Part shown: piece by piece, positions 4,686-59,180 of the stretch | How the letters are laid out: every line of letters begins with the position of its first letter | Position numbering within the stretch: position 1 is the first letter of the stretch | NCBI GenBank assembly: GCA_965205015.1 | Contig: OZ242029.1 | Coordinates: forward strand, 4,288,001-4,352,000 | DNA: 64,000 nucleotides | Reading direction: 5' to 3' | Source: Candidatus Poribacteria bacterium | Lineage (GTDB): Bacteria > Poribacteria > WGA-4E > WGA-3G | Translations under genes and position numbers: made by a program | Notes under the pieces: model-generated | Told to the model about the DNA's origin: nothing | The model's database searches: none | What the model saw: the letters and a program-made list of their open reading frames with translations, nothing else

Positions 4686-5723
4686 CTAATTCGCTTTTTT
4701 AAATTCACCCCAGGTTGTGATAAACCTATCTCGTGGTGTTACGCTTAGACTCGGTGCGAATTCTTCAACGGTTGGAAGAATCGCAGGTCCCAAGCCTTCA
4801 GCGACCCCGCCAACGGCATAGATTTTATTCTTCAGGTTCCCAGCTCCCAAGAAAACTCTCGCTGTTGGCATTTCTGGACTTTCCATCCATGTGTCAGTTG
4901 CTGGTTCGTATACTTCGACAGTTGCCAATCCGGGTCCTTGCACTGTAGATGTACCGCCCATAGCGTAGATCTTTGAACCTACTGCACTAACAGCCAGAGC
5001 CGTTCGGGCGGTCGGCATATCTGTTTTCTGTGTCCATGTACCTGAACTCGGATCGTATTCTTCAACCGTTTTAAGAACGGGTCCTTGCACGGCAGGTGTG
5101 CCACCAATGAGATATATTTTTTTGTCAATACTTGCGGCTGCCATTCCTGAACGTGGCGTCGGCATATCTGTTTTCTGCGTCCATGTGTCAGTTGCCGGAT
5201 CATATTCCTCAACAGTACCTAACACGGGTCCGACATTTTGGGCGATGCCTCCAATTGCGTAAATTTTATTTGATATGACAGTCGCTGCAAAAAACGAGCG
5301 TGGCGTCGGCATATCTGTTTTCTGCGTCCATGTGTCAGTTGCCGGATCATATTCTTCGACTGTTCCAAGTGCCGGCGATTGTCCGTTCCATCCCCCGATC
5401 GCATAAATCTTTCCATCAACTACGCATGTTACGACCCCCGCGCGTCCTGCTGGTAGACTCGCTTTCTGGGTCCACTCGTCCTTATCCGAGTCGTAAGCCT
5501 CAACAAAATCAACCGGTTCAGCAAGCATTCCACCGATAGTGTAAAGCTGATTATCAACGGTAGTTACGGAAAAAAAGAGCCTCGGAATCGGCATGTCTGA
5601 TTTTTGTGCCCAGTTTTCGGCGGTGGCACTGTACATCAAGATGAAGGTGAATAGAAGGGTGAACAGCCCACAACAATTAAAAAATGAAAATGCGTTTGAT
5701 CGTATTGTAATTTTTTTTCTCAT
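4686..5723 (-). CDS. Secreted Kelch-repeat beta-propeller protein with C-terminal VTP..RFITTWG..K tail
   Basis: Six KIYAIGG...VEEYDP..DTW..K.DMPTPR-type repeats; N-terminal signal peptide. Confidence 0.9.
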   Translation of the reverse strand: MRKKITIRSNAFSFFNCCGLFTLLFTFILMYSATAENWAQKSDMPIPRLFFSVTTVDNQLYTIGGMLAEPVDFVEAYDSDKDEWTQKASLPAGRAGVVTCVVDGKIYAIGGWNGQSPALGTVEEYDPATDTWTQKTDMPTPRSFFAATVISNKIYAIGGIAQNVGPVLGTVEEYDPATDTWTQKTDMPTPRSGMAAASIDKKIYLIGGTPAVQGPVLKTVEEYDPSSGTWTQKTDMPTARTALAVSAVGSKIYAMGGTSTVQGPGLATVEVYEPATDTWMESPEMPTARVFLGAGNLKNKIYAVGGVAEGLGPAILPTVEEFAPSLSVTPRDRFITTWGEFKKAN

Positions 5724-10105: not shown

Positions 10106-10708
10106 TTAAAGTGGAAATTTTTCGTTGATCATCATAAGGGGTTCCTGATTTGCCAACACCCGATAGGCGCGACTGATAAACTTTTCACCTTCAAGATGTG
10201 CCACAGCGGATGGAAGATTGGTTAAGACCTCAATACCACACCAGAGCAGCTCCCGTCGAGTCTCTAAATCACTATGCTGCAGAAGGCCACCGAGTCCCTG
10301 TTTGTCGGATTCTAATCCATTCAAAATGGATTCCGGCAGACGTTTCGGCACAATAAGTGAGTCGGCATAGGTATGTATTCTGGGTAATGATTTTTCCTGT
10401 GAATGGGTTTGGAGGACTGCTTGCCGTGAAATGATCTCTGATCCCGTAGATAGTTGGAGCCATGTATGTTCGGTGGATAGCGTCTGTTTGGTTTGTTGGA
10501 GTAAGGTTACCTCTACCGGCATGAGTGTGTAGGCTTCAATAAATCGCGTAACCGTCCCATCGGCGACGAGCAACCCACGTTGGAACGCAGTCAGTTGCGC
10601 GAGGTTGATTCTTTTTAAGGTTTCAGGTTTATGGTCTTGCGCGACAAAGAGTGCCTTCATGCGGGTATTAACGAAGGTCCCCTGTTGTGTAACTGTGTCT
10701 GTTTTCAT
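10106..10708 (-). CDS. Chorismate pyruvate-lyase-like (UbiC/DUF98) protein
   Basis: FQRGLLVADGTVTRFIEA, YADSLIVPKRL, LETRRELL, PLMMINEKFP; ATG 10708 chosen over the upstream alternative start at 10747. Confidence 0.75.
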   Translation of the reverse strand: MKTDTVTQQGTFVNTRMKALFVAQDHKPETLKRINLAQLTAFQRGLLVADGTVTRFIEAYTLMPVEVTLLQQTKQTLSTEHTWLQLSTGSEIISRQAVLQTHSQEKSLPRIHTYADSLIVPKRLPESILNGLESDKQGLGGLLQHSDLETRRELLWCGIEVLTNLPSAVAHLEGEKFISRAYRVLANQEPLMMINEKFPL

Positions 10709-10828
10709 GGTCAAAGTTCTCTTTATTTCTGGAAGAAGCACGTTCACGCGAACGTAACATGCGATATTTGGGGTTGTTGTTCAATTTTTTAGACACATAA
10801 GGCTAAAAAAAAGTTCGTGAATATGCAT

Positions 10829-10857
10829 TTGACATACCAATCGTGATGACGTATACT
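10829..10857 (+). promoter_or_regulatory. Sigma70-type promoter
   Basis: TTGACA-N17-TATACT. Confidence 0.65.
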
Positions 10858-10882
10858 ATGGACAAAACGACATCTCAATAAG

Positions 10883-10993
10883 ATGAACGTTATGACGCCT
10901 GATGATGTTTACGTCCGAAAAGCGATAGAGGGTGATGATGGGGTTTCTAATCCCGCTTTCATGAGGTTTCGTTCCAAGTGTCCAAAGTTTTAA
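10883..10993 (+). pseudogene. Possible N-terminal remnant of an ECF sigma factor
   Basis: Short ORF MNVMTPDDVYVRKAIEGDD resembles ECF region 1.2 (D..LV.+...GD..AF) and breaks off at a REP-like sequence. Confidence 0.35.
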
Positions 10994-11835
10994 TCAAATC
11001 TATATCTCTTTTTTTAATCAGTACTTCTTTACTTTTCAGCAGTTTCACGGCAATTGCAGAAGAACTTCCCTTATCCCTCGGCGAACATCTCTTCGCGCAG
11101 GGCAACTACGATGCCGCTATTACCGAGTATAAACGTTTTCTCTACTTCCATCCATCAGATAAACGTATTGGCGAGGTGTATTACAACGTTGGACTTGCCT
11201 ATAGAGCACAAGGTCTGTGGACAGAGGCAGTCACTGCCTTGCGAACGGCGACACATCTCGCTACAGATGCCGAAGCAAAATCGGAATACCAGCTGGAACT
11301 CGCCGTAACGCTGATCGCGGCGCAGGACTACGATCTGGCTCGGTTGGAATTGGTTAAGGTGACAATGCGACCCCTTCCCACGCAGTTGTACCGACGCGCA
11401 CTTTTCTTGCAAGCCGTTGCGTATCTCTATCAGTTTCGATGGGAGGACGCCCGGGAATCACTACAAAACTATACAACCGATGAAAGATTGGATATTCTCT
11501 TTGAGGCAGCTACTGATATACCGCTGAAATCTGAGAAGGTTGCGCGGGTATTGTCAACAATCCTGCCTGGTGCGGGACAGGTGTATGCAGGCGATTGGAG
11601 AGGTGGGTTAAACGCGCTTCTGCTGAACGGTGTACTCGGTGTTCTCGCTGTTGACTTGGTGTTAGACGGATATTATGTAGATGCGGGGTTGTGGGGAGTG
11701 TTCATTTTCTGGCGTTACTACCGGGGTAACACCTTTCGTGCGGGACAAGCAGCTGAGCGATTCAACCAGGAGGAATCTCACAAAGCCACCGATGCCATCT
11801 TACAACGACTCCAAGAAATTGTTGGCACACCTTGA
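10978..11835 (+). CDS. Exported TPR protein with C-terminal hydrophobic (TM2-like) segment
   Basis: Signal peptide; TPR helices (LGEHLFAQGNYDAAITEYKRFL, YYNVGLAY); LSTILPGAGQVYAG. Confidence 0.75.
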   Translation: MSKVLIKSISLFLISTSLLFSSFTAIAEELPLSLGEHLFAQGNYDAAITEYKRFLYFHPSDKRIGEVYYNVGLAYRAQGLWTEAVTALRTATHLATDAEAKSEYQLELAVTLIAAQDYDLARLELVKVTMRPLPTQLYRRALFLQAVAYLYQFRWEDARESLQNYTTDERLDILFEAATDIPLKSEKVARVLSTILPGAGQVYAGDWRGGLNALLLNGVLGVLAVDLVLDGYYVDAGLWGVFIFWRYYRGNTFRAGQAAERFNQEESHKATDAILQRLQEIVGTP

Positions 11836-11844
11836 ACGTGGCAC

Positions 11845-13740
11845 CTATGATCCTTGGCGTTTTTGAAGCGTGTACACGACCGCAACGAGTACTATCGCGA
11901 TGGCGAAGGTCCAGACGTTATAAATGTATGCCAAGAATGTCGCAAGCGCAAGCAATATCCACTCATACCAATGCGTCTTACGGACGAAGAAGCCCATCGT
12001 TACAATAGAGAAGATAACTGTGCCGACCACAGCCGATACCACAGATAGCACATATTCAACCGGTGTACCCCCTGTAAACAGGATGTGGGTATACGCAAAT
12101 AGCAGCGGCATGATATAGAGCAGTTTGGAGAACTTAAAACATGCCCATCCCGTCTGCCAGGGATCAGCACGGGCGATAGCGGCACCCGCATAGGCTCCCA
12201 AGGCGACCGGTGGTGTGATGTTCGAATCTTGACTCAGCCAGAAGATGATGAGATGCGCAGCAATAATCGGTATGCCCATCTCAGGCGTCGTCAGGATCGG
12301 CACAGCGAGTTCAGAGGTAATAAGATAGGCGGCGGTCACAGGAATTCCCATTCCGAGTACAAGAGAAGCTGCAGCGAGAAGCAGAATTGCGATGGTCTTG
12401 TTAGTCCCCGCAACCGACAGCACTAAATCCGGGAATATCCTTCCTAAACCCGTCAAATCTATGACGGCAACGATAATACCAATAGTGCCAACCGCACCGC
12501 CAATAGCGAGCGAATTCTTTGCCCCCATCACCATCGCTTCCCAGATACGTTTCGGTGTTAATCGTGTCTCTGGACGGAAATAACTCACCGCAATTGTGAC
12601 AAGGATTGCGAAGAATGCCGCTTTGTAAGCGGTATAGCCAGCAATTAAGATACCCACAAGCGTCAGCAACGGGAGTAAATAATACCAACCACTTTTAAGA
12701 AGGGATAAAAATTTCGGGATTTCTGCGTCTGGTATCCGTTCGAGTCCCTGCTTTTTCGCCTCAAAATGTACCATCACCCAAACGGAGAGGAAATAGAGAA
12801 CGGCTGGCACGATGGATAGAAGGGCAATTTTACTATAGGGAAGCCCCGTCCGTTCTGCCATGAGAAACGCCCCTGCTCCCATCACGGGGGGTAGGAATTG
12901 CCCACCGACAGAGGCGGAAGCCTCGACTGCCCCAGCGATATGCGGACGGAAGCCGGTCCGTTTCATTAAGGGTATCGTAAACGTGCCGGTAGCGACTGTA
13001 TTCGCAATCGCACTTCCCGCAACGGACCCAAAAAAACCGGAGGTCATGACCGAAACTTTCGCAGCCCCGCCTATTGAGCGTCCCGCTATTGACATCGGTA
13101 GGTTGATAAAGAATTGCCCGACCCCCGATTTCTCCAGAAATGCCCCGAAAAAAATAAAGAGAATCACGTAAGTCGCCATCACGTTTGCCATGATGCCGAA
13201 GACCCCCGCTTGGCTGAAAAAGCAGTATTCGATAATCCGACGAAGTGGAAACCCGCGATGCGCGATAGCATCCGGCAGAGAGCGACCGAAAAGCGCATAG
13301 AGAATACCGATTATAGCGATGATAGGCAGTGCCCAACCGACTGTCCGACGGCTCACCTCAAAACTAATTACGATCGCGACCGCGCCTACGAAAATATCGA
13401 GTTGGCTGTAATTGCCTGCCCGATTGACAAGATTCGGGTATTCTACAATCCAGTAGCCGATGGTGAAGATGCTGAGGGCAATCATGCCGAGGTCTATGAG
13501 GGATGGACGGGATACTGGAGAGTTCTTCCGACATCGGTAAAAGATGCCGATCAACGCGAAGGTCAGCAGGAGATAGAAACCGAGATGGAATTGCTCACTG
13601 GCACTCCCAAACCCTGCGCTATAGATATAAAAGAGGACGAGCGCAGCCGCACCGAGTTCAAAAATCCATTTGTATATTTTTTTTAACTCGGTGCGTTGGT
13701 TCTCAAGACCAGAGACTTCTTTTGATTCAGTTTGTGTCAT
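11845..13740 (-). CDS. TRAP transporter fused 4TM/12TM permease (TAXI-type)
   Basis: Many TM helices; GSAIANTVATGTFTIPLMKR, EASASVGGQFLPPVMGAGAF, LGMGIPVTAAY, SNITPPVALGAY. Confidence 0.93.
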   Translation of the reverse strand: MTQTESKEVSGLENQRTELKKIYKWIFELGAAALVLFYIYSAGFGSASEQFHLGFYLLLTFALIGIFYRCRKNSPVSRPSLIDLGMIALSIFTIGYWIVEYPNLVNRAGNYSQLDIFVGAVAIVISFEVSRRTVGWALPIIAIIGILYALFGRSLPDAIAHRGFPLRRIIEYCFFSQAGVFGIMANVMATYVILFIFFGAFLEKSGVGQFFINLPMSIAGRSIGGAAKVSVMTSGFFGSVAGSAIANTVATGTFTIPLMKRTGFRPHIAGAVEASASVGGQFLPPVMGAGAFLMAERTGLPYSKIALLSIVPAVLYFLSVWVMVHFEAKKQGLERIPDAEIPKFLSLLKSGWYYLLPLLTLVGILIAGYTAYKAAFFAILVTIAVSYFRPETRLTPKRIWEAMVMGAKNSLAIGGAVGTIGIIVAVIDLTGLGRIFPDLVLSVAGTNKTIAILLLAAASLVLGMGIPVTAAYLITSELAVPILTTPEMGIPIIAAHLIIFWLSQDSNITPPVALGAYAGAAIARADPWQTGWACFKFSKLLYIMPLLFAYTHILFTGGTPVEYVLSVVSAVVGTVIFSIVTMGFFVRKTHWYEWILLALATFLAYIYNVWTFAIAIVLVAVVYTLQKRQGS

Positions 13741-25820: not shown

Positions 25821-25851
25821 ATTTTGATAATTCACCACAGTATTGACGCTT

Positions 25852-27264
25852 ATGGAAACAGAAATGTCTGGACCGCATCCTATTCCTCCGTCCCAATACC
25901 TTGTCTTGGATGATCGCATCATTGAAGGGGTTGTCGGGGCAAAACTTACCCTTGGCGAGATTACGAAGCATCCCCAAAATCCCCTTTTTGGTGAGGATAA
26001 ACCGTGGGAACCGCGTTTCGACAACGTCTATGCCAACGTCATCTATGATGTAGAGGACAAACTCTACAAATGTTGGTACAATCCATTTATCATAGATGAA
26101 CGGGTGACGCACACACCACCCGAGAAACGGCACCCTGATTGGTGCAGTTATATGGATGTGAAACCAAGTGGGCGGGAGATGGGGCTCTGTTATGCTTCCT
26201 CGTCAGATGGTATCCATTGGGAGAAACCTGATCTTGGGCTCGTTGCGTTCGATGGCAACAGGCGTAACAACATTCTGATGCGCCGCGTGAATGGAGCCGG
26301 CGTTTTCAAGGATGGACGTGAAATCGATCCAGCGAAACGCTATAAGATGTTCTTCTGTGGAGAGCCCCAAATGACGGTCGCGTTCTCTTCAGATGGATTG
26401 CGCTGGGGTGAACCTCTTCCAATTCCACAAATTGAGGCACACGGCACGCATCCGAACGCGTTTTGGGCGGAGACATTGGGCAGATACGTCGGTATCACCC
26501 GTCAGCATGCTCGTAATATTCGCCTCGTCACACGAGCCGAGTCTTCTGACTTTGTACACTGGACACCAGACGAATCTATCCTTGAAGGTCCCAGTCCGCG
26601 TCTACAAATGCATGATATGATCGTGTTTCCAACGTGTGGAATCTATATTGGACTGCTCGGTATGATGGTGTATCCAGAGGACTCCGACATTGATGTCAAA
26701 CAGCATGTGGAATTGGCTTGGAGTCCGGACACCGTCCAGTGGCACCGCATACAGGAAGGGATTCCATTTATGGGGCATACCCCATCGGAAACAGAACGTT
26801 ATGGGGAGACACCTTACGATTGGGGGACGATCTTCCCCTCTGCCCCGATTTTCTTTGACGATGAGATTCGCATCTACTACGGTGCTGGAGATGGCTACTT
26901 TTTCAACTGGCGTAACGGCTACCTCGCACTCGCAACGCTTCGTCCGGACGGTTGGGCAGGCTACGAACCAACCGCAACTGACAGACCCGCTGTTATAACG
27001 ACCCAACCCTTAACCTTTCATGGGACATCGGTAGGCATAACGGCAGATGTATCCGATGGTGGTTCTGTACGCGTAGCGATTCTGGATAAGGTAGGTAACC
27101 AAATTGTCAGTAGTCAACCGATTCATTCGACTGTTACAAATTTCCGTGTCCAATGGGAGCTAAATCAAGATTTAGCGGATTTGAGAAACAAAGAAATTCG
27201 GTTAAGATTCCAGTTGCATAACGCAAAACTCTATGCTTTCCAGTTTCTGATGGAGCGTAGGTAA
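25852..27264 (+). CDS. Five-bladed beta-propeller glycoside hydrolase-like protein (GH32/GH43/GH130-like)
   Basis: NPLFGEDKPWE, CYASSSDGIHWEKP, AFSSDGLRW, SSDFVHW, IRIYYG, LATLRPDGW; start uncertain (25843-25864). Confidence 0.7.
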   Translation: METEMSGPHPIPPSQYLVLDDRIIEGVVGAKLTLGEITKHPQNPLFGEDKPWEPRFDNVYANVIYDVEDKLYKCWYNPFIIDERVTHTPPEKRHPDWCSYMDVKPSGREMGLCYASSSDGIHWEKPDLGLVAFDGNRRNNILMRRVNGAGVFKDGREIDPAKRYKMFFCGEPQMTVAFSSDGLRWGEPLPIPQIEAHGTHPNAFWAETLGRYVGITRQHARNIRLVTRAESSDFVHWTPDESILEGPSPRLQMHDMIVFPTCGIYIGLLGMMVYPEDSDIDVKQHVELAWSPDTVQWHRIQEGIPFMGHTPSETERYGETPYDWGTIFPSAPIFFDDEIRIYYGAGDGYFFNWRNGYLALATLRPDGWAGYEPTATDRPAVITTQPLTFHGTSVGITADVSDGGSVRVAILDKVGNQIVSSQPIHSTVTNFRVQWELNQDLADLRNKEIRLRFQLHNAKLYAFQFLMERR

Positions 27265-48679: not shown

Positions 48680-48705
48680 TAGGCGTGAGGTAACCTCGCC
48701 TCTAC
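48679..48705. repeat. GTAG REP palindrome between convergent genes; supplies the prmA stop codon
   Basis: gtaggcgtgaggtaacctcgcctctac. Confidence 0.65.
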
Positions 48706-49598
48706 GACAGAGTGGCGAGACTCAGGATGGCTTTCATTCCTATCCACGTAACTTTATCTTCTATTTCGCTGATCACCTCGAGACATTGAAATTGATTTGC
48801 TTCTAAAACCGACTTAACTTGTGCAAGTTCAGTCTCCAAAATCCCAGAGAAAATGACGATCCCATCGGGATAGAGCCGCTGTGTACAGAACGGAATCATT
48901 GGAAGAATTGCTTTCGTTAAGATGTTTCCAACGATGAGATGGTATTTGTTTTCTATTCCTTTGAGTCCATCGCCTTGAGATAAACATACCTGCGGTGCTA
49001 CACCGTTTGACTGAAAATTAGCGGCTGCAATGGGGAGTGCTGTCGAGTCAATCTCAATCGCGTCAACGTGTTTCGCGCCTAATTTGATAGCGGCAATTGT
49101 TAAGATCCCGGAACCTGTTCCGATGTCAGCAACTTGATGGTGCGGTTCGACGGTGTGTTCCAATAATTCGAGGGAAAGTCGTGTGGTGGGATGATAACCC
49201 GTCCCGAACGCCATACCCGGATCGAGTTGAATCAAGATTTCCGCTTTGTTGTGGGGGGGATCGCGCCATGTTGGTGCGATAACAATCTTTTTGCCAATGC
49301 GTTGTGGGGGGAAGGCGGATTTCCAGGTTTCTTCCCACTTCTCGGATTTGATATGTTTTAGATCAATTGTTGCGGGGTGTGGTTGAATCCCCCATGTTGG
49401 AAGTTCGGTAAGGAAGTCGCGGAGTTTCTGCATCCGTGCGCCAACCCTATCATCTAAAGGGTAGTGGGCAATGAGGTCTACTGTGGATGCCTTGTTATCC
49501 TTGAGTTCAACGCCGGTTGCGTTTAATTCAAGAAGAAGATTTGCCACGGCTTCTGATGCCGCTTGAGAGGTCGTTACCGTGATTCTTGCCCAGTCCAT
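48702..49598 (-). CDS. prmA: Ribosomal protein L11 methyltransferase
   Basis: LDPGMAFGTGYHPTT, DIGTGSGIL, VGNIL, FSGIL; downstream of dnaJ; start set at MDWARI. Confidence 0.93.
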   Translation of the reverse strand: MDWARITVTTSQAASEAVANLLLELNATGVELKDNKASTVDLIAHYPLDDRVGARMQKLRDFLTELPTWGIQPHPATIDLKHIKSEKWEETWKSAFPPQRIGKKIVIAPTWRDPPHNKAEILIQLDPGMAFGTGYHPTTRLSLELLEHTVEPHHQVADIGTGSGILTIAAIKLGAKHVDAIEIDSTALPIAAANFQSNGVAPQVCLSQGDGLKGIENKYHLIVGNILTKAILPMIPFCTQRLYPDGIVIFSGILETELAQVKSVLEANQFQCLEVISEIEDKVTWIGMKAILSLATLS

Positions 49599-49627
49599 GT
49601 TTGCCACGTTTATGTATTTGCGTTTTC

Positions 49628-49714
49628 TGTAGGGCAGGTACAAGATTTGCCCCTACCGGTGGGCAAGTACAAGACCTGCCCCTACCGGTGGGCAAGTACA
49701 AGACCTGCCCCTAC
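49628..49714 (-). repeat. Three tandem 29-bp GTAG REP units
   Basis: gggca[ag]gtacaaga[ct][ct]tgcccctac three times. Confidence 0.85.
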
Positions 49715-49720
49715 GTATTT

Positions 49721-50845
49721 CTATTCGGATTCTTCGTCGTCATGTCTACCGAGCAGTTTATCCCAGAATCCGCCGTGTTCGTTTTGATGGGTTTCGCCTC
49801 GCAGTTTCGCAAATTCTGCTAACGTTTTTCGTTCTTCTGCATTGAGGTTTTTGGGCGTTTCGATCTCTATCCTTACAACCAGATCCCCTGAATAGGATTG
49901 CCCATAATGCGGGACTCCTTTATTGGGTATACGTAGTTGTGCCCCGTACTGGGTGCCCGGTGGAATATCGAGTTCTTCCGGTCCATGAATACTATCAACT
50001 TTGATCTTCCCACCGAGTGTGGCTTGGACGAACGAGATTTTGGCTGATGTAATAAGGTCGTTTCGATCCCGTTGGAAATGTTCGTGTGGTTCGACATTAA
50101 TAACGACAAACAGGTCACCCGAAGGCGCGCCGTTTACACCTATTTCGCCTTTACCTTGTAGTTGGTACTGGAAACCTGTATCAACGCCTTTATCAATATT
50201 TATCGGAATGTCGCGTATGTTTCGAACAGCGCCCCTTCCGCGACAGGATTGACAGGGTTCCTGAATAGTCGCCCCTGCCCCACGACATTTTGGACAGGTT
50301 CGCGACATTGTGAAAAAACCGTGTGATTGGCTGATTTGCCCCCTGCCGTAACATTGCGAACACGGTACAGGACTCGTTCCCTTTTTGGCACCACTGCCTT
50401 CACATGTAGGACACAATTCAATCCGTGGCACTTGGATTGTGGTCTGTTTGCCGTGAATAACGTCTTCCAATGTTATGTCAAGGTGGTATTGTAAATTACG
50501 TCCGGGTTTGGGGGGACGCCGCGCCCCGCCCCTGAATCCACGAAAGAGGTTGCCAAAGACATCACCGAAAACTTCGTCAAAATTTATGGTTAAATCTTCG
50601 AAATTGATCCCCATACCTTCCAGTCCTGCGTGTCCGAACCTATCATAACGGTCCCGTTTTTCACGGTCTCGCAGTACTTCATAAGCCTCAGTGGCTTCTT
50701 TGAATTTGTCTTCAGCAACTGTGTCGCCCGGATTTTTATCCGGATGGAATTGTATGGCGAGTTTGCGGTAAGCCTTCTTTATTTCGTCTTCATCGGCATC
50801 ACGATTGACGTTCAGAATCTCATAATAGTCGCGTTTTTGCGTCAT
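49721..50845 (-). CDS. dnaJ: Chaperone DnaJ
   Basis: J domain with HPD, G/F region, four CxxCxGxG motifs. Confidence 0.97.
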
Positions 50846-50863
50846 ATGCTGTCCTTCCTGTGG

Positions 50864-51724
50864 CTATTCAGTCGTGTTCGCAGTCGCATCCGTATCATCC
50901 GATACGTCGCCTGATGTTTCTTCTTCAGCTTCAGCGGGTCCCTGCGAAACGACAACTTGAGAGGCGCGTAGGACACGGGTGTGCAACATGTAGCCACGCC
51001 GAAATTCCTCAATAACTTTTCCCTCCGGCACATCGTCCGATACTGTGACCAAGAGTGCCTCGTGCTGGTTTGGATCGAACATTTCTCCAACCGCTTCAAT
51101 CGGTGTCAACCCGTGGATTTTGAGGGCATCTAAGAGTTGTTTATGGACGAGTTGCACGCCTTCGTTAAAGGTCATGAAAGCTGACGAAATATCGCTCGTC
51201 TCGTCCTGCTCTGCTGCGCTTCTGATCGCGGCTTCCAGACTGTCCAAGGCAGGGATCATCCCTTCTAAAATTCCCTCATTGGCGAATTTGAGTTGCCGTT
51301 GATAATCAGTTTGCAAGCGTTTTTTGGTATTCTCAGCTTCTGCTGCTGTACGCAGGAGACGATCGCGTTCTGCTTTGTATTCTTCATGGACCTGCTGCAC
51401 AGCAGTTTCTACCTCTTTTTCGATTTCCGTGTGCAATAAGTCTTCGCGTTCTGCTTCGTATTGCTCGCGCACTCTTTGCACAATCGTTTCGACTTCTTCT
51501 TTGACGTCGGAGGTGAGGTTGGCAGCGGTTTCTTCGACAGGCGCGATGCGTTCTTCTATCTCCTTTTTTACTTCTGATTTGACTGTATCAAGTGCCGTCT
51601 CCGCGATTTCTCGCATCCGTTCGACAAGTGTTTTTTCTTGACTGTCGGTAGAATCGTTATCGGTAGACGCTTCTTTTTCTGTTTCTTCTTCTGTTTCTAT
51701 GTGTATTTCTCTAACTTCAGCCAT
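50864..51724 (-). CDS. grpE: Nucleotide exchange factor GrpE with extended coiled coil
   Basis: LLRTAAEAENTKKR, FDPNQHEAL, RGY.L..RVLRASQVVV. Confidence 0.93.
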   Translation of the reverse strand: MAEVREIHIETEEETEKEASTDNDSTDSQEKTLVERMREIAETALDTVKSEVKKEIEERIAPVEETAANLTSDVKEEVETIVQRVREQYEAEREDLLHTEIEKEVETAVQQVHEEYKAERDRLLRTAAEAENTKKRLQTDYQRQLKFANEGILEGMIPALDSLEAAIRSAAEQDETSDISSAFMTFNEGVQLVHKQLLDALKIHGLTPIEAVGEMFDPNQHEALLVTVSDDVPEGKVIEEFRRGYMLHTRVLRASQVVVSQGPAEAEEETSGDVSDDTDATANTTE

Positions 51725-51787
51725 AATGAAGCCCTTCTGTCTTTCTTGAGGTGTGCTTGGAAAGCACGCTTGTTTGAGTCGTCCATT

Positions 51788-52534
51788 TTAGCTATGAACG
51801 GCGTTAGCAAAGGCTCTCATCAGTTCGAGAGAGCCGTTTTCTTCGAGGATATTCCCTGTGACGATGAAGTCCGCCCCTGCTTCTACCTTTTTTGCGGCGA
51901 TTTCTGGTGTCCGGATGCCTCCACCGACGATGAGTGGGATGCTGATTTGATTTTTTACTGTTGTGATCATCTCTTCTGGAACAGAGTGGACAGCACCACT
52001 TCCTGCCTCCAGATATACCATTTGCATACCGAGATACTGGGCAGCTAATGCGTGTGGTCCCGCAATGTCGGGTTTATCACGCGGTATGGGAATTGTGCCA
52101 CTCATAAATTCAACGGCGGTTTTGTTGCCGCCTTCAATCAGCATATAGCCAGTTGGAATGGGTTTAAGCGCGTAACGTTGTATCCACGGTGCGGCTTTGA
52201 CCTGTTCGCCAATAAGATAGTTCGGGTTGCGTCCACTTATGAGACTGATATACAGAATGGCATCCGCATGGGGAGTGAGGTGCATCGAATCGCCTGGAAA
52301 TAACACCAGCGGGAGTTCTGTTTCCTGCTTAAGGGCTTTCGCGACGCGGTGTAAATCGTTCGTTAAAAAACTGCCACCGAGCAAAATTGCGTCTGCCCCT
52401 GCCTCTTCTATTTCGCTTGCAAGTTTAACGCATTTTTCAATGTCACACTGCTCCGGATCAATTAGAACGAAATAACCAGCATGGCGATTTTTCAATACCT
52501 CGTGAAAGTAGTTAAGAACCCAATTTGATCTCAA
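51788..52534 (-). CDS. Geranylgeranylglyceryl phosphate synthase (PcrB family, group II)
   Basis: VLIDP, LGGS, LFPG, LISGRNPNYLIGEQ, PTGYMLI, YLEAGSGA, VGGGIR, IVTGN. Confidence 0.9.
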   Translation of the reverse strand: MRSNWVLNYFHEVLKNRHAGYFVLIDPEQCDIEKCVKLASEIEEAGADAILLGGSFLTNDLHRVAKALKQETELPLVLFPGDSMHLTPHADAILYISLISGRNPNYLIGEQVKAAPWIQRYALKPIPTGYMLIEGGNKTAVEFMSGTIPIPRDKPDIAGPHALAAQYLGMQMVYLEAGSGAVHSVPEEMITTVKNQISIPLIVGGGIRTPEIAAKKVEAGADFIVTGNILEENGSLELMRAFANAVHS

Positions 52535-52627
52535 ATGCGATTTCCTTTTCTGACTATGCTAAATATAGGTTTGAATGCTATGCCATTTCTGATGTTACGG
52601 ACTTAGGGAGCACCAGTTACCTTAAAA

Positions 52628-52656
52628 ATTTTATCATATTTATGTCGATTTGTCAA
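52628..52656 (-). promoter_or_regulatory. Sigma70-type promoter upstream of GGGPS-grpE-dnaJ-prmA
   Basis: TTGACA-N17-TAAAAT with extended -10 TG on the minus strand. Confidence 0.65.
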
Positions 52657-52752
52657 ATTCTGTGTTGTCGCGTGCGTTCATAAAGGAGGGTACCTGCGGC
52701 GACACCTACGTTGCGTAAGAAACCAGACCCCGATATTTATCCGTAAGGTAAA

Positions 52753-53601
52753 TTAAAAGAACGTTCCGAGATAGATTGCGCCGAGTCCGACGAATATATC
52801 CCATTTCATCCAACGTTGAATGGACGCGCAACTTTCTTTCGAAGCATCTTGACCCAGACGAATTGCCAAACCGATGAGCACCACATCAACACCGATAAGA
52901 ACAACAATCAAGTAGTGCCATGAATACCAACGAAATAGATATGGGATAGGACTAAAAAGAATAACAGATGCCATGAAGCCGATGGCTGTCCAGACTGCGA
53001 TGCCTGGATTGAGCGTAGCAAGCGTTTTCGCGTTATTTTTCAGGTCGCCTTCTGTATCCTCAAGGTCTTTGACGATTTCCCGCGCCGTTGTGAATAAAAA
53101 GGCGAAGAGTGCTGGAATGAGCGTACCTTGCACCGAATCTATTGCTACACCGCCAGCAATGAAGGTTAAACCCGTTAATCCGCTAACGACTAAATTGCCG
53201 ACAAAAGGGGTACGTTTCAACCAGAAAGCGTAACTTACAAGCGCAATCGACACGAGAATAGCAATGACTGTTGTATTTCTGTTGATAAGGGTTCCCAAGT
53301 AGATGCCGATGACGGTAAGTACTATTGCCAAAATTAGTGCATTGGGACGCCGAATGCGTCCAGAAGGGAGCGGTCGGCGCGGACGATTAATGCGGTCAAT
53401 ATCGTAATCACAGTAATCGTTGATGGCGTTTCCGGCAGAAATCACGATAAGCGCGGCGAGAGAAACCAACAGAAGTCGGATATCGGCGAGATTTTCCACG
53501 TTCCCTTGGCTAGCAAACATCCCACCGAGCCACGCAGAGATGAAGGCGATGATTCCGTTCAGGGGTCGCGCTAACTCAACGTACGCGATCAATGTCTTCA
53601 T
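52753..53601 (-). CDS. Digeranylgeranylglyceryl phosphate synthase-like UbiA prenyltransferase
   Basis: LARPLN, GNAINDYCDYDIDRINRPRRPLPSG, LKRTPFVGNLVVS, AREIVKDLEDTEGD; multiple TM helices. Confidence 0.82.
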   Translation of the reverse strand: MKTLIAYVELARPLNGIIAFISAWLGGMFASQGNVENLADIRLLLVSLAALIVISAGNAINDYCDYDIDRINRPRRPLPSGRIRRPNALILAIVLTVIGIYLGTLINRNTTVIAILVSIALVSYAFWLKRTPFVGNLVVSGLTGLTFIAGGVAIDSVQGTLIPALFAFLFTTAREIVKDLEDTEGDLKNNAKTLATLNPGIAVWTAIGFMASVILFSPIPYLFRWYSWHYLIVVLIGVDVVLIGLAIRLGQDASKESCASIQRWMKWDIFVGLGAIYLGTFF

Positions 53602-53634
53602 GTTTTGTGATCGTGAGCATTGAATGATAGTCTA

Positions 53635-53893
53635 TTAGGGATAACGGATACCGAAATGCGTTCCATACTGTCAGCACACGGACTGTAGTATGACTTGAAC
53701 GAAAGGAGGTACAGTAGAAAAAGAATGCTTGCGCAGAAACCGAGAACTTTCCCTCACAAATCGAGAATGGGCTGCCCTTTAGACAAAAGGGGTACACGGA
53801 GCAGATAAATCCGAGTGTGACTGATAGTAAAATGAGGATCAGATGCGCGAGGTTTCCGCGAAAAACGAGTAGACTCGGCACAAGGGAGCGTGT
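53635..53893 (+). ncRNA. Candidate structured RNA with repeated ANGGA motifs
   Basis: No credible ORF; at least five hairpins and six ANGGA motifs; strand inferred from motif orientation. Confidence 0.3.
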
Positions 53894-53918
53894 AAAAAAA
53901 TTGAAACCTCTCGTTTCC
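53894..53918 (-). terminator. Weak intrinsic terminator after lpxD
   Basis: Minus strand GAAAC-gagag-GTTTC followed by AA-T7. Confidence 0.35.
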
Positions 53919-53928
53919 GGTAATATGC

Positions 53929-54981
53929 CTACGATTCATCCTCCAGTTCTTGAATTTTCGCTTCCAGTTCTGCAACTCGTTTTTGGAGTTTAGTGAATTC
54001 GGGGAGCAGTTCTGGCAATTTCCGAGTCGCTGCGTGAATCCGTAATTCCTGTTTGTGGGGACGTGCGGGGAATCCGGACAGATGACTGCCGGCAGGCATA
54101 TCCTTTGTAACTGCGGATTTGGCGTAAACGACACTGTCTTCGCCGAGAGTCAGATGTCCTGCTGCACCTCCATGCCCCGCGATATTTACTCGGTCCCCGA
54201 GTGTCGTGCTGCCAGCGATACCGACTTGCGCGGCGAGGCAGCAATCTTCTCCGATAACAACGTTGTGTGCGATTTGGACGAGATTATCCAGTTTAGTACC
54301 GCGTTTGATCAACGTTTCAGAGAGTGTTGCTCTATCAATAGTCGTATTCGCTCCAATTTCAACATCGTCTTCAATGACCACGGTTCCGATTTGGGGGATT
54401 TTGTGGTGTCGGTTACTAACGGGGGCGAATCCGAACCCATCGCTGCCAATAACTGCGCCGCAGTGGATGATCACGCGGTTGCCGATGGTGATTCCTTCTC
54501 GAATACTGACATGTGGGTAGATAAGACCGTCGGAGCCGATCTTGGTTCCTTCGCCGATGTAGGCAAAGGGTTGAATGATGGTATCATCTCCAATTTCAAC
54601 GTTATCAGCGATATAGGCAAACGCTTGGATTGAGACGCGCTCACCGAGTGTGACGTTCTTTCCTAAAATTGCGGTCTCATGAACCCCGGGCAGTGCGCGA
54701 TCGTTTTTGTCCCACGCGAACATTTCGATAACTTTGACGAAAGCCCAGTAGGGATTCTCAACACAGATAGTGGGCTTACCGTTACCATTGACACCGCGGC
54801 CAATAATAATGGCGCCGGCTTGTGTTGTCGCTATAGCGGCGACGTACTTGGGATTAGCAACAAAAGTAATTTGGCTTGGGAGTGCCTCTTTGATTCCAGA
54901 AACTCCTGTAATTTCGATATCACCGTCCCCAGAAAGATCGCCATCCAAGCGTTCACAAATTTCCTTGAGTTTCATACGCAT
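53929..54981 (-). CDS. lpxD: UDP-3-O-(3-hydroxyacyl)glucosamine N-acyltransferase
   Basis: Hexapeptide repeats; IGSDGFGF, KIPQIG.V.IEDDVEIGANTTIDR, KLDNLVQIAHN. Confidence 0.97.
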   Translation of the reverse strand: MRMKLKEICERLDGDLSGDGDIEITGVSGIKEALPSQITFVANPKYVAAIATTQAGAIIIGRGVNGNGKPTICVENPYWAFVKVIEMFAWDKNDRALPGVHETAILGKNVTLGERVSIQAFAYIADNVEIGDDTIIQPFAYIGEGTKIGSDGLIYPHVSIREGITIGNRVIIHCGAVIGSDGFGFAPVSNRHHKIPQIGTVVIEDDVEIGANTTIDRATLSETLIKRGTKLDNLVQIAHNVVIGEDCCLAAQVGIAGSTTLGDRVNIAGHGGAAGHLTLGEDSVVYAKSAVTKDMPAGSHLSGFPARPHKQELRIHAATRKLPELLPEFTKLQKRVAELEAKIQELEDES

Positions 54982-55046: not shown

Positions 55047-55610
55047 TTATTCAGGATTTCCGTCATTCTTTTCGCCTTCGTTCATCAAGCCGATTAACTG
55101 TTGTGTCAAATCGTGTTCCTTTTTCACATAAAGTGTGATGAGTCGTTTTTCGAGGATGATGTCATAATTTTCGGACTCACCGACTTTGACAATGAGTTCT
55201 TGAAGGTTGTTGTAAATCGGTTCCATTAACTCTTGCTCTTTTTCAAGCAGTGCCTGCTGACCGATTTGGACCTCACGTTGATATTCCTGCTGTTTGAGGC
55301 GAATTTCGTTATCCAAATCCGCGGTTTGTGCTTTTTCCACGAAGAGTTCAGTTTTCGCTTTCTTTTCTTGTAGCGTTCTGATGTCGTCTTCTAACTGCTG
55401 CAATTTCGTTTTCAGGCGTTCGCTTGCGGCTTGGAGCAGCTCAGTTGCATCCGTCGCTTTTTTGGATCCTTCTAAAACCTCTTGTGTGTTGACGACACCG
55501 ATTTTGAAAGATTCTTGTCCGATACTTCCCGAACTAAAACAGAAAACTGTAAGACCGATAATTAAGAGTGTGAGACGTGCTTGGTAAGCACCCAACCGAA
55601 ATGGTTTCAT
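55047..55610 (-). CDS. skp: OmpH/Skp periplasmic chaperone
   Basis: Signal peptide; KIGVVN, coiled coil, YDIILEK, DLTQQLI; located between bamA and lpxD; start uncertain. Confidence 0.88.
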   Translation of the reverse strand: MKPFRLGAYQARLTLLIIGLTVFCFSSGSIGQESFKIGVVNTQEVLEGSKKATDATELLQAASERLKTKLQQLEDDIRTLQEKKAKTELFVEKAQTADLDNEIRLKQQEYQREVQIGQQALLEKEQELMEPIYNNLQELIVKVGESENYDIILEKRLITLYVKKEHDLTQQLIGLMNEGEKNDGNPE

Positions 55611-55774
55611 CAAATTCTTCGGGGTGAAAACCTCTGAATTCATTCAGTAGAGGGAACCCCGCTCCTGTATTTTGCTTGACAAAAAGTGTCAAAATGTTAG
55701 ACTTAAGTTTAGTAACTTGAAGACGTTTGTTCGCTCGAACAACATCCAATGTAGTATAGCGCGGCGGCAATCAT

Positions 55775-58234
55775 TTAAAACCCGGGACCGACCGTGAAAT
55801 GGAATTTGCCAGCGGGTTCGCCGCTCACGCGATCCAAGCCATATCCCCAACCTAATCGTACTAACATGCCGAGCATGGTAAACCGAGCCTCAAGCCCGAG
55901 ACCTCGCTTCAGGTTGATTTGGCTGAAGACGTTTGTAGTGCTTTCATCCCACACCTGTCCTACGTCAAAAAACAGTGCTGCTGTGAGCTGCTGAGAAATT
56001 GGGACACGATACTCAAAGTTTGCGAAGAATACCTTATCACCACCGTAGGGATTAATAAATCCCGATTCATCTGGATCCGGATAGATTTCCCAATCTTCAT
56101 AGCCACGAATGCTATCTACACCGCCGAGGAAGAATCTTTCATAGAATAGGAAATAAGCATCGGTGCTTTCACTTCGCATGAGTCCGGCGCGACCATGCAC
56201 AGCGATAACGTGGTTCCACCATCCACTGTAGAACCAACTGGCGTCCGCATAATATTTCTGGAATTTGTTGTCGGCGCCAAGAATACCACCGGAGTATTCA
56301 TAAGAGAGCGTATTAAATGAACCTGCTGTTGGGTCAAACAGGGAGGTGCGATAATCGCGGGTATCTCTGCCAACGGAAAACAGAATGCTCCGTGTGGAAC
56401 GATTGTATAACTCTCGGTCTGGGTTGTGTGATTCCACGTGTTCATTGCGAAAACGTACCGACAGATCAATGTCGTGTGCGATGGGTCTTCCGAGCGTTAG
56501 GGACGCCCCTCGCCTTGCCCAAATATAGCGGTCGTAGAGGCCGTATGGGGAGCTGCTTCCCAAGTGACGACGGTTATAGAGGGCACCGATCGTTCCGTAG
56601 TAGCGACGGAAGCGTCGATTGTCGTAGATTCGGGCGTTAAGCCGAGTGGGTGTCCCCAAAATCCAAGGGGTTCCAAAACTGAGTTCGGCGGTATGGTGAT
56701 CTCTTGTGCCTAACTCGCCTTTGAGATGCACCCGATAGGCTCGTCCGCGAAAGTTGTTTTGTCCGACCTCAGCTACACCGAAGATACCGCCTTCGCTGCC
56801 GTACCCGCCTCCGACACTTAACATTCCTGTTCGTGGCGTTTCGGCGATATTAACTCTTAACTCCTTTCGGTTGTCTTCAGAGGTGTCACTTGGGACAAAA
56901 TCAACGGCGCGAATGAAAGAACCCATCTGGAATAACCGTTGTCGTGCTTTGCGGAGTGCTTTGACATCTAATAATTCATCGGACTTGATGTCCAGAAAAT
57001 CTAACTCGCGTTTAACAACGTGTTCTTGTGTTTTTTCTAATCCAGTAATGATGACTTTGTCAATAATGATGACATCCCCTTCGTTGATTTTTAGGGTAAT
57101 GTCAACGACGCCCTCCACCTCATTGAAGACGGGGGTCGGTATGACCTCTGAAAGTAGGTAGCCTTTGTCGAGATAAGCCTGCTGTAATTTTGCAATTGAT
57201 TCGTCAAAGGTCGCGCGGTTAAAAACCTCGCCTTCCGCCGGGTCAACCATCCTGCGTATTTTCTTTTCAGAAAAGAGTTCCTTAGCTCCGGCTTCCACCT
57301 CAAGTGTGTATGTCCCGATAATAAATTCGGGACCTTCATCAACACTAATGTCAAGCATTAAGCCGGTTTTGTCTTCCGTGAACCGTTTTTCGTAGCCGAT
57401 GACCTTCACTTGTGCAAAGCCTCGGTCCTGATAGTAGTTTCGGAGATTCAGTCCTAAGTCTTCTTCTTCAAACAGCATCTGATCGAAGTGTTTACCGGTG
57501 CGGGTTTTGAGTTTTTTCCGGAGTGTATTCGCCGAGAGTTGTGTGTTTCCGATGAAGTTGATTTCCTCAATTCGCACTCTCGGTCCTTCGTTTATCTCAA
57601 ACGTGACTTGAACGGTATTCGCCTCTTCGTCTTTATCGCCAAGGTGGGTTTGGATGCCGACGAGATAGTATCCTTTTTCGTGGTAGAGTTTCTGTAGTGC
57701 TCGCTCACTTTCCCACCGTCGCCGATCACTATAAATTTCTGAGGGGCGGAGTATAATCTCATCTTTAAGTTTGCCGGTACTCAAATTTTCATTTCCAATA
57801 ATGTTAATTCCGGAAATTTTAGGACTTTCGACGACCTTGTAAATGACCTCTAACCCGCCCTCTTCCAGAGGTTCTACATTTACGGTGAGTTCAGAGAAGA
57901 AGCCTGTGTCTTTAAAGAGGCTTTTCAGGTCTTGCGTGAGGAGTTCTTCAGAGATTTCCTGTCCAATCTGTGTCTGAATAAGCGTGCGCAGCATATCTTC
58001 GGAGGTAGTTTTCACGCCTTCAAAGGAGACTTTTTTGACACGGAGCAGCGAATCGTCAGTTGGTTTGGTGGTATCTGTTGTCGCTTTATCGGGTTCGGTC
58101 TCCACCTGCTGTTCGGTGATAGTGGCTGCCTGAGGACCAAATACTGGTTTTTCCGTTTCTTCTGCAAAACTGGTGATTGCTGCAAGTCCAATGCATAGAC
58201 TTATCAGCATAAAAACGTTTTTTGGTGCATTCAT
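55775..58234 (-). CDS. bamA: Outer membrane protein assembly factor BamA
   Basis: GGGAG RBS; POTRA repeats; FFLGGVDSIRGY; C-terminal FHFTVGPGF; start set at MNAPK. Confidence 0.95.
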   Translation of the reverse strand: MNAPKNVFMLISLCIGLAAITSFAEETEKPVFGPQAATITEQQVETEPDKATTDTTKPTDDSLLRVKKVSFEGVKTTSEDMLRTLIQTQIGQEISEELLTQDLKSLFKDTGFFSELTVNVEPLEEGGLEVIYKVVESPKISGINIIGNENLSTGKLKDEIILRPSEIYSDRRRWESERALQKLYHEKGYYLVGIQTHLGDKDEEANTVQVTFEINEGPRVRIEEINFIGNTQLSANTLRKKLKTRTGKHFDQMLFEEEDLGLNLRNYYQDRGFAQVKVIGYEKRFTEDKTGLMLDISVDEGPEFIIGTYTLEVEAGAKELFSEKKIRRMVDPAEGEVFNRATFDESIAKLQQAYLDKGYLLSEVIPTPVFNEVEGVVDITLKINEGDVIIIDKVIITGLEKTQEHVVKRELDFLDIKSDELLDVKALRKARQRLFQMGSFIRAVDFVPSDTSEDNRKELRVNIAETPRTGMLSVGGGYGSEGGIFGVAEVGQNNFRGRAYRVHLKGELGTRDHHTAELSFGTPWILGTPTRLNARIYDNRRFRRYYGTIGALYNRRHLGSSSPYGLYDRYIWARRGASLTLGRPIAHDIDLSVRFRNEHVESHNPDRELYNRSTRSILFSVGRDTRDYRTSLFDPTAGSFNTLSYEYSGGILGADNKFQKYYADASWFYSGWWNHVIAVHGRAGLMRSESTDAYFLFYERFFLGGVDSIRGYEDWEIYPDPDESGFINPYGGDKVFFANFEYRVPISQQLTAALFFDVGQVWDESTTNVFSQINLKRGLGLEARFTMLGMLVRLGWGYGLDRVSGEPAGKFHFTVGPGF

Positions 58235-58298
58235 AATCAATATTCTCCCATGTGTTGTAGGCTTTTCCACAGGCGCGTAAGCACGATCTGTTCCACTG

Positions 58299-59180
58299 TT
58301 ATACGTCGGTGGTATAGATTGGGGTGCCGCAGCTATGTGCAAACTGCCGAAATGCTGCAATGAGTTTTTCTGTCACTTTTCCGGGCTGCCCGTCTCCGAT
58401 GGCGCGCCGGTCTATTTTCACAACAGGTATAACCTCGGCGGCTGTGCCGGTGAGAAAACATTCATCTGCAATGTAAAGATCGTGCCGTGTGAAAACGCGT
58501 TCTTCGACGCGCATGCCAGCACGGCGTGCCAGATCGATAACACTGTTCCGGGTTACACCTTCCAAAATTCCCATGTGGACCGGTGGTGTGACAAGGACTT
58601 CATCCTTGACCCAGAAGATATTATCGCCACTACATTCAACAACATACCCCTCTGCATTAAGCATCAATACCTCTTCTGCACCGGACTGTTTGCCCTCAAT
58701 TTTGGCTAAAATATTATTTAGATAATTCAGCGACTTAATGCGCGGGTTAATGGCTTCTGAATAATTCCTTCGGACAGAGACAGTTACGATTTCCAAACCT
58801 TCTTCATAGAATTTTTGTGGGTACAGGGTGATTTTATCTGCAATAATAATGATGCTCGGCTTTGGACATTTATCCGGGTCGAGCCCGAGATCGCCTACGC
58901 CGCGCGTTACAACCAATCGAATATAGGCTTCACTGAGATGGTTCCGACGGAGTGTTTCCAGAACCGTTTCCTTCATCGTTTCAATAGAGATAGGGATCTG
59001 CAACATGATTGATTTTGCAGAATCGTAAAGTCGCTCAAGGTGATCGTCGAGTTTAAAGACTCTACCATTGTAGGAACGGATACCTTCAAAAACGCCGTCG
59101 CCGTAGAGTAAACCGTGATCGAACACCGAAACCTTTGCTTCTGCTTTTGGTAAAAATTCTCCGTCGATATAAATCAACAT
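58299..59180 (-). CDS. ilvE: Branched-chain amino acid aminotransferase
   Basis: DHGLLYGDGVFEGIR, KSLNYLNN, ECSGDNIF, LEGVTR, FLTGTAAE. Confidence 0.95.
   Translation of the reverse strand: MLIYIDGEFLPKAEAKVSVFDHGLLYGDGVFEGIRSYNGRVFKLDDHLERLYDSAKSIMLQIPISIETMKETVLETLRRNHLSEAYIRLVVTRGVGDLGLDPDKCPKPSIIIIADKITLYPQKFYEEGLEIVTVSVRRNYSEAINPRIKSLNYLNNILAKIEGKQSGAEEVLMLNAEGYVVECSGDNIFWVKDEVLVTPPVHMGILEGVTRNSVIDLARRAGMRVEERVFTRHDLYIADECFLTGTAAEVIPVVKIDRRAIGDGQPGKVTEKLIAAFRQFAHSCGTPIYTTDV

Follow-up and report, generated by a model that had tools for sequence, protein, structure and literature searches.

Genes for a group II GGGPS and a DGGGPS-type UbiA protein in Poribacteria: a putative archaeal-type ether-lipid route

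Introduction

Bacteria that carry both a geranylgeranylglyceryl phosphate synthase (GGGPS) and a digeranylgeranylglyceryl phosphate synthase (DGGGPS), the enzyme pair by which archaea build their ether-linked isoprenoid lipids, are already known from the Fibrobacteres-Chlorobi-Bacteroidetes (FCB) group, of which the Cloacimonetes enzymes have been tested in Escherichia coli. The sections of Villanueva et al. 2021 (PMC7852524) that deal with these genes describe how the Cloacimonetes pair makes archaeol with a phosphatidylglycerol head group (PG-archaeol) in E. coli without CarS, report neither CarS nor glycerol-1-phosphate dehydrogenase (G1PDH) in the Cloacimonetes metagenome-assembled genomes (MAGs), and state that co-localisation of GGGPS and DGGGPS within bacteria seemed restricted to Cloacimonetes. 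Here we analyse a stretch of 64,000 nucleotides from a sponge-associated Candidatus Poribacteria bacterium (assembly GCA_965205015.1, contig OZ242029.1, positions 4,288,001 to 4,352,000), hereafter the window, in which a gene for a group II GGGPS stands next to one for a UbiA-family prenyltransferase of DGGGPS type. An earlier note on this DNA had pointed to the two genes as an archaeal-type ether-lipid pair. On the evidence assembled below we lean towards the reading that they encode working enzymes of such a route.

Database annotation already extends these enzyme names to Poribacteria proteins. The phylum has 0 occurrences in the main text of PMC7852524 and of PMC6431249, whose supplements may list it, and full-text literature searches, with the supplements of the key papers outside their scope, returned no paper linking Poribacteria to GGGPS or DGGGPS. 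The ether lipids of sponge symbionts are the subject of a 2026 preprint, which describes elb, agps and mss routes in Poribacteria; the terms GGGPS and geranylgeranyl have 0 occurrences in the portion of its text that was available.

The UbiA-family protein

The prenyltransferase gene (53601..52753, minus strand, ATG start) codes for an integral membrane protein of 282 residues that matches Pfam UbiA with 147.5 bits. Its closest sequence in the PDB is the DGGGPS of Methanocaldococcus jannaschii (6m31; 6.4e-38, 134 bits), and the second best is a chlorophyll synthase (5.5e-10, 42 bits). An AlphaFold model built on 60 sequences has a mean pLDDT of 97.1 and a pTM of 0.92, and with it Foldseek retrieves the same archaeal enzyme (7bpu, 3e-15; 6m31, 1e-14; TM-score 0.77), followed by UbiA homologues of Aeropyrum and Archaeoglobus at about 2e-7 (Aeropyrum 1.9e-7) to 6e-6. 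The protein is thus closest to M. jannaschii DGGGPS by sequence, motifs and predicted fold, in agreement with the DGGGPS-type identity proposed in the earlier note, and the two Asp-rich motifs quoted there, NDYCDYDIDRINRPRRPLPSG (residues 61-81) and REIVKDLEDTEGD (residues 174-186), are indeed in the translation.

Related loci were collected by scanning a profile from a 10-row alignment over species genomes and keeping the best 80. Only Poribacteria were returned: all 80 loci are labelled Poribacteria or "uncultured bacterium", with 51-92% identity, and the nearest proteins to the window pair are 80-99% identical, those with a name carrying Poribacteria names. The guess that this organism belongs to the Poribacteria, made from the letters of the sequence, was therefore a good one. 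According to the parts of PMC9385802 that describe the M. jannaschii enzyme, its conserved motifs comprise N62, D66 and D70, then Y125 and K130, then D180, D183 and D187; alanine mutants of the five aspartates have strongly cut activity, and N62 and Y125 are placed close to the glycerol part of geranylgeranylglyceryl phosphate (GGGP). The corresponding residues of the window protein, N61, D65, D69, Y124, K129, D179, D182 and D186, are invariant in 80 of 80 sequences. Motifs 1-3 are necessary for a DGGGPS assignment and not sufficient for it, similar motifs being present in other UbiA enzymes.

A search of 1.84 billion cluster representatives with the UbiA sequence gave 357 matches at E<=1e-30, and the 60 nearest representatives scanned all match DGGGPS-type models. 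The neighbours with a name belong to Calditrichota, Kryptonia, KSB1 and Ignavibacteria, and one to a Methanofastidiosia archaeon, names having been obtained by exact look-up for only 3 of 20 neighbour clusters. The phylogeny that the earlier note had suggested as a check was carried out by a quick maximum-likelihood method on 54 rows, which comprised 13 orthologues out of the 80, 28 of 150 representatives, ten named sequences and three paralogues, with no experimentally characterised DGGGPS among them. The Poribacteria proteins come out as one clade (SH-aLRT 98), nested within a DGGGPS-like group of 51 rows that also holds FCB sequences and one archaeal sequence, the deep order of which is unresolved; the window protein groups with these DGGGPS-like sequences, apart from the MqnP-like and CyoE paralogues.

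These paralogues are found in the close relative G001, which has four UbiA-superfamily genes: an MqnP/UbiA-like enzyme that passes TIGR01475 (314 bits, cut-off 180.8), a heme O synthase (CyoE) that passes TIGR01473, the orthologue of the window gene and a divergent DGGGPS-like paralogue. The last of them (locus L095, 1333-2256, minus strand) codes for 307 residues, scores 132 bits with NF009523 and has an altered first Asp motif.

The GGGPS protein

The GGGPS gene (52534..51788, minus strand) has a TTG start preceded by a conserved AAGGAA and codes for a protein of 248 residues of the PcrB family (Pfam PcrB, 168.5 bits). It scores above the curated equivalog TIGR01769 (228 bits, cut-off 161.55) and the subfamily model NF003198 (292.5 bits, cut-off 247), and fails the heptaprenylglyceryl phosphate synthase model NF003197 (34 bits versus a cut-off of 260). 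The PDB chains that it matches strongly are of group II, namely 4mm1 (2e-57, 197.6 bits), 4jej (1.2e-51, 178.7 bits) and 6jo3 (1.6e-47), whereas group I GGGPS and PcrB chains match it weakly, at about 1e-7 to 1e-6 (2f6u, 1.6e-7). We take 4mm1 to be the GGGPS of Methanothermobacter and 4jej that of Flavobacterium. The nearest clusters in the Atlas look-up are mostly from Bacteroidota, with some from Thermoplasmatota. On the basis of PDB scores, NCBIfam scores and the Atlas look-up, the window protein is a group II GGGPS by family, as the earlier note had it, from which GGGP-forming activity would be expected.

The motifs SGRNPNYLIG and YLEAGSGA that had been picked out by eye are present at residues 100-109 and 174-181. 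YLEAGSGA, GGGI, VTG and FPG align with 4mm1, and among 67 sequences (66 orthologues and that of the window) none of the four departs from this in more than one. Phe143, which is Phe in 65 of the 67, stands in the alignment opposite the 4mm1 Trp that variant 5nf1 exchanges for Ala; this is the position of the aromatic anchor that PMC9385802 describes for hexameric group II enzymes. Both lipid genes are under purifying selection: for UbiA, 11 pairs give ratios of nonsynonymous to synonymous substitution rates (dN/dS) of 0.07-0.12, and for GGGPS ten pairs give 0.04-0.09. Most pairs are saturated at synonymous sites; the three least diverged ones have values of 0.09-0.12 (UbiA) and 0.05-0.09 (GGGPS).

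Distribution in Poribacteria

Searches of 175 Poribacteria species genomes detect GGGPS in 143 (E<=1e-10) and the window type of UbiA in 144 (E<=1e-30). When the two presence lists are compared by reading, 141 genomes hold both genes, 29 neither, two GGGPS only (G042, G102) and three UbiA only (G012, G014, G084). The 29 genomes without the pair consist of a run of 19 (G043-G048 and G050-G062; 4.3-7.0 Mb) and ten scattered ones. A search of 15 of these 29 with family models found no full PcrB match, and several of the 15 are single-contig chromosomes; a partial match in G110 (23.5 bits, 54 of 226 model positions) was taken for another barrel protein.

Organisation of the locus and transcription

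The UbiA and GGGPS reading frames are adjacent and co-oriented on the minus strand, as first noticed, and are separated by 218 bp. Upstream of them lie bamA (58360..55775; TIGR03303, 407.9 bits, cut-off 297.15), skp (55643..55047; Pfam OmpH, 87 bits) and lpxD (54981..53929; TIGR01853, 372.9 bits, cut-off 242.5), the last one 327 bp before UbiA, and downstream, after 63 bp, come grpE, dnaJ and prmA (51724..48702; GrpE Pfam 143.7 bits, DnaJ TIGR02349 406.6 bits, PrmA TIGR00406 210.6 bits), all of them on the minus strand. The outer-membrane neighbours named in the earlier note are accordingly borne out by family models for lpxD, skp and bamA; its lol genes are an ABC ATPase and an FtsX/MacB_PCD permease, an identification made by Pfam only.

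The 80 related loci share the gene order bamA-skp-lpxD-UbiA...GGGPS-grpE-dnaJ-prmA. Both lipid genes fall within the 10-kb flank in 67 of them, and where GGGPS lay outside the flank or the contig came to an end it was found elsewhere in the genome in 11 of 12 such genomes. The distance between the two genes in the 67 loci has a median of 1386 bp, and in 62 of them a SpoU-type methyltransferase gene of the same strand stands in between; L040, with 282 bp, is the only locus of the 67 as compact as the window. In L001 the intervening frame (10747-12069) codes for 440 residues and matches Pfam SpoU_methylase with 122 bits. The gap of the window still holds the last 19 codons of such a SpoU/TrmH-type RNA methyltransferase gene (52712..52656, minus strand), which by tblastn match residues 422-440 of the L001 protein with 84% identity, and over 179 nt the gap agrees, with 87% identity, with the end of L001 spoU (its 3' part) and the spacer behind it. 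This remnant indicates that about 1.1 kb has been deleted. Run X5 of a different study holds a DNA contig of the same compact form, with 44 differences over 2301 bases. Direct adjacency of UbiA and GGGPS is thus derived, a by-product of the loss of the intervening spoU and not an ancestral operon.

A sigma-70-like site, TTGACA-17-TAAAAT with an extended -10 TG, lies at 52656..52628 on the minus strand, some 95 nt ahead of the start codon of GGGPS. No other promoter-like site occurs in 51600..54100, whereas shuffled sequences average 3.3, and in 55 of 68 sequences the 150 nt before GGGPS contain the pattern TTGAC[AT]-N16-18-TANNNT. To judge from these sites, the two lipid genes are probably transcribed separately, GGGPS from its own conserved promoter-like site; since grpE follows GGGPS closely (median gap 106 bp in 64 loci), GGGPS may share a transcript with grpE-dnaJ that starts from this site. 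Metatranscriptome contigs from one sponge library cover both genes (85-96% alike, eight pieces listed, four for each gene). These come from one run, amount to a 0.05 share of the stretch, bear neither strand nor transcript ends and may be DNA carry-over, so they give a weak hint of expression of the two genes. No meaning attaches to the bins that they leave bare, such as 53471-53932.

A putative ether-lipid route and its remaining enzymes

In the route that we favour, the soluble GGGPS would join geranylgeranyl diphosphate (GGPP) to glycerol phosphate, with glycerol 1-phosphate (G1P) preferred, and so form GGGP, an activity expected from its family. The membrane-bound UbiA protein, using its two Asp-rich Mg2+ motifs, would add a second geranylgeranyl group at C-2 of GGGP, the presumed acceptor, to give digeranylgeranylglyceryl phosphate (DGGGP). 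By analogy with the Cloacimonetes genes in E. coli, CdsA and bacterial head-group enzymes could afterwards convert DGGGP to inner-membrane phospholipids of the isoprenoid diether type. As the earlier note had remarked, the window holds no G1PDH, CarS or polyprenyl synthase detectable by Pfam scans of 50 of its open reading frames (ORFs). Nor did the relatives' G1PDH-like, GGPP synthase-like, long-chain polyprenyl synthase, CdsA and geranylgeranyl reductase-like proteins give any tblastn match in the window at E<=1e-3.

Several observations weigh against this route. The NCBIfam models that fit UbiA best are of DGGGPS type, but it stays below the cut-off of each (NF009523, 228.7 bits against 269; NF009521, 209.4 against 296; NF009522, 169.3 against 353), and in an alignment read by eye Phe170 takes the place of Ser171, a residue of lipid tunnel 2 in M. 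jannaschii DGGGPS. The remaining pathway genes were sought in the genomes of close relatives (UbiA 88-92% identical) and not in the window's own genome. A G1PDH-like protein of 353 residues is present in all five close relatives, with 114-127 bits to NF002022 against a cut-off of 413; across the phylum a protein search finds it in 74 of 175 genomes and a family search in 83, and it is missing from many genomes that have both lipid genes. CarS was not found in any of the five, which gave only PF01864 matches of 24-26 bits, and the relatives have no confident geranylgeranyl reductase, the best candidate reaching 133-147 bits with TIGR02032 (cut-off 158.8) and doing better with a halogenase model (176 bits). 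The table of co-occurrence, finally, overstates the number of independent events, because one deletion can remove both neighbours and related genomes share states.

As to the model scores, the NF009523 cut-off seems to be no useful test, since archaeal control genomes miss it too: none of 14 control genomes takes the model over its cut-off, while its matches at E<=1e-30 fall in the four archaeal genomes and in no others. The G1PDH probe PF13685 proved unspecific, with matches in 13 of the 14 control genomes, and NF002022 was used instead; in the copy scanned, this model comes out ahead of a glycerol dehydrogenase model (77 bits), and the best PDB matches are G1PDH-type chains. This distant G1PDH-like homologue, present in under half of the phylum, is a possible source of G1P. 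In G002, the one relative scanned for it, the weak PF01864 frame is CdsA-like (NF008635, 113.6 bits). Of the two polyprenyl synthases in the relatives, one is closest to archaeal IdsA (230 bits) and GGPP synthase (214 bits), both short of the cut-offs, and the other is long-chain-like.

The glycerol-phosphate acyltransferase PlsY (PF02660) was not found in the five close relatives, G001-G005. For GpsA, the N-terminal domain gave only 26.7 bits, in two genomes searched, and this weak match sits in a frame of 346-349 residues; PlsC-type acyltransferases have four matches per genome in the relatives. In view of that frame and of these acyltransferases, the PlsY and GpsA results are not read as absence.

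The tetraether synthase Tes (NF045702) has 0 matches in G001, which represents the lineage of the window. It is over its cut-off in four of the 175 genomes, G010-G013 (loci L106 and L107), with 580-602 bits against 450. Three members of this group, G010, G011 and G013, have both ether-lipid genes and G012 has the UbiA type only, and the best-scoring G1PDH-like genes, at 174-178 bits, are those of G009-G011. According to a Black Sea study (PMC11868695), 10 of 29 Poribacteria MAGs have Tes homologues. In G010-G013, Tes thus accompanies genes of GGGPS and DGGGPS type, and in some members also a G1PDH-like gene that scores better, so that tetraethers could be made there.

Alternative explanations

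The two proteins might not serve one pathway. GGGPS could be the only ether-lipid enzyme and make a monoether polyprenylglyceryl phosphate, as Bacillus PcrB does, with UbiA prenylating another acceptor and the pair being a conserved neighbourhood; we hold this to be unlikely, though it is the likeliest of the alternatives. It fits the UbiA scores under every DGGGPS equivalog cut-off, the unrelated spoU gene that parts the two genes in 62 of 67 loci and the promoter-like site that GGGPS has to itself; the discussion of the family in PMC9385802 adds that UbiA enzymes cluster by acceptor and that the acceptor is unreadable from sequence alone. The divergent DGGGPS-like paralogue is moreover retained in all 15 sampled genomes that have neither GGGPS nor the window type of UbiA (308-343 residues, 122-144 bits), and this persistence points to GGGPS-independent roles of the wider UbiA family in Poribacteria. 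However, the window type itself stands alone in just 3 of 144 genomes, at least two of which are fragmented assemblies, the characterised enzyme closest to it in both sequence and fold is a DGGGPS, and N61 and Y124, whose counterparts approach the glycerol backbone of GGGP, never vary. A quinone prenyltransferase of 4-hydroxybenzoate or 1,4-dihydroxy-2-naphthoate (DHNA) type is another identity to be considered for UbiA, with the UbiC-like gene at 10106..10747 as its partner. That gene, a chorismate-lyase-like one flagged in the earlier note, does match PF01947 (53 bits) and lies in the window, but UbiA does not group with such enzymes: it scores 48.2 bits with TIGR01474 (cut-off 275.45), 54.7 with TIGR01475 (cut-off 180.8) and about 40 with MqnP models (NF041585, 40.3, cut-off 375), and a PDB sequence search brings up no 4-hydroxybenzoate prenyltransferase, MenA or UBIAD1 structure at E<=1e-3. 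The TIGR01475-passing enzyme and CyoE of G001 both fall outside the DGGGPS-like group in the tree, and with these separate enzymes present in G001 we reject the quinone identity. Model scores, PDB search, tree and paralogues together contradict it, its chance being next to nil, and the UbiC-like gene likely has another partner.

The direction of the reactions and the place of their product can be questioned as well. For FCB bacteria without G1PDH, salvage or breakdown of archaeal lipids is put forward in the relevant part of Coleman et al. 2019 (PMC6431249), and the Poribacteria enzymes could likewise run in reverse on lipids from archaea that share the sponge. About half of the pair-bearing genomes are without a G1PDH-like gene, as this proposal would have it. 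Yet a GGPP synthase-like gene is present in the genomes, and we know of no reversal of prenyl transfer by enzymes of GGGPS or DGGGPS type. The Cloacimonetes enzymes, as described in PMC7852524, act in the synthetic direction, and we regard reversal as very improbable. The earlier note had also taken the linkage to outer-membrane genes as a sign of an envelope role, in which the product might for example serve as carrier or anchor lipid alongside lipid A and the β-barrel assembly machinery (BAM). UbiA does follow lpxD in 73 of 80 loci, and the gap, with a median of 204 bp and a minimum of 13 bp, is small enough in some genomes for read-through from lpxD to be possible; in the window, by contrast, it is 327 bp. 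The suggestion finds no support, since the same conserved block equally contains chaperone and ribosome-modification genes (spoU, grpE, dnaJ, prmA) and the linkage is not envelope-specific. In two sampled Poribacteria genomes without both lipid genes, bamA-skp-lpxD is intact and other genes stand downstream of it. The position of UbiA after lpxD is conserved synteny and not a functional tie, and an envelope function of the product appears improbable. We retain as preferred the synthetic route through GGGP and DGGGP.

Other features of the window

Elsewhere in the window, a gene at 4686-5723 (minus strand) codes for a Kelch-repeat protein (238 bits), a eukaryote-like repeat type reported for sponge symbionts, and another at 1473-2297 (minus strand) for a glycerophosphodiester phosphodiesterase (GDPD, 106 bits). 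An ORF for 473 residues at 25843-27264 (plus strand) has no Pfam match at E<=1e-5.

Comparison with known systems

The presence of archaeal ether-lipid enzymes in bacteria matters for the "lipid divide" and for the question whether mixed membranes are viable in nature. It is possible, if rather doubtful, that most Poribacteria (141 of 175) make isoprenoid diether phospholipids beside fatty-acid lipids and lipid A, and that the deep G010-G013 subclade may even make membrane-spanning isoprenoid tetraethers. If it were true, dominant sponge symbionts outside the FCB group would have a naturally mixed membrane.

Among individual enzymes, the window UbiA resembles M. jannaschii DGGGPS (6m31, 6m34, 7bpu) in a full-length alignment, in 33% identity by Foldseek, in motifs 1-3 and in a predicted fold that superposes with the TM-score of 0.77 given above, and differs from it in Phe170 for Ser171, in its NCBIfam scores beneath the cut-offs and in its bacterial host. 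The GGGPS matches the group II enzymes 4mm1 and 4jej over the whole length, with YLEAGSGA and GGGIR identical and Phe143 at the position of the Trp anchor. With PcrB of Bacillales (1viz, 3vzx, 4nae) it shares the (beta-alpha)8 family and a bacterial origin; the match, however, is only about 1e-6, the NF003197 score is 34 against 260, and the product of PcrB is a C35 monoether, made by an enzyme that lacks a DGGGPS partner.

The closest parallel is the FCB group, and Cloacimonetes in particular. The comparison drawn in the earlier note is sound in that both have a group II GGGPS and a DGGGPS-type UbiA in one diderm genome. As far as PMC7852524 and PMC6431249 describe the FCB systems in their text, the likeness extends to the lack of CarS, to a missing or doubtful G1PDH and to two polyprenyl synthases, and the named nearest relatives of the window UbiA are FCB-type bacteria. 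The differences concern taxonomy, gene arrangement, reductases and kind of evidence: the NCBI taxonomy puts Poribacteria among candidate phyla and not in the FCB group; their pair is usually split by spoU, directly adjacent in the window only after a deletion; Cloacimonetes MAGs are described as having archaeal-like geranylgeranyl reductases, whereas none is clear in the Poribacteria relatives; and the evidence is one of gene content for Poribacteria and of product formed in E. coli for Cloacimonetes. To the FCB systems Poribacteria add a phylum outside that group with many closed genomes, in which the pair is kept, under purifying selection, in about four fifths of the species, together with natural "knock-out" lineages without both genes and a subclade with a bona fide tetraether synthase, features that make comparative lipidomics of sponge fractions a feasible test.

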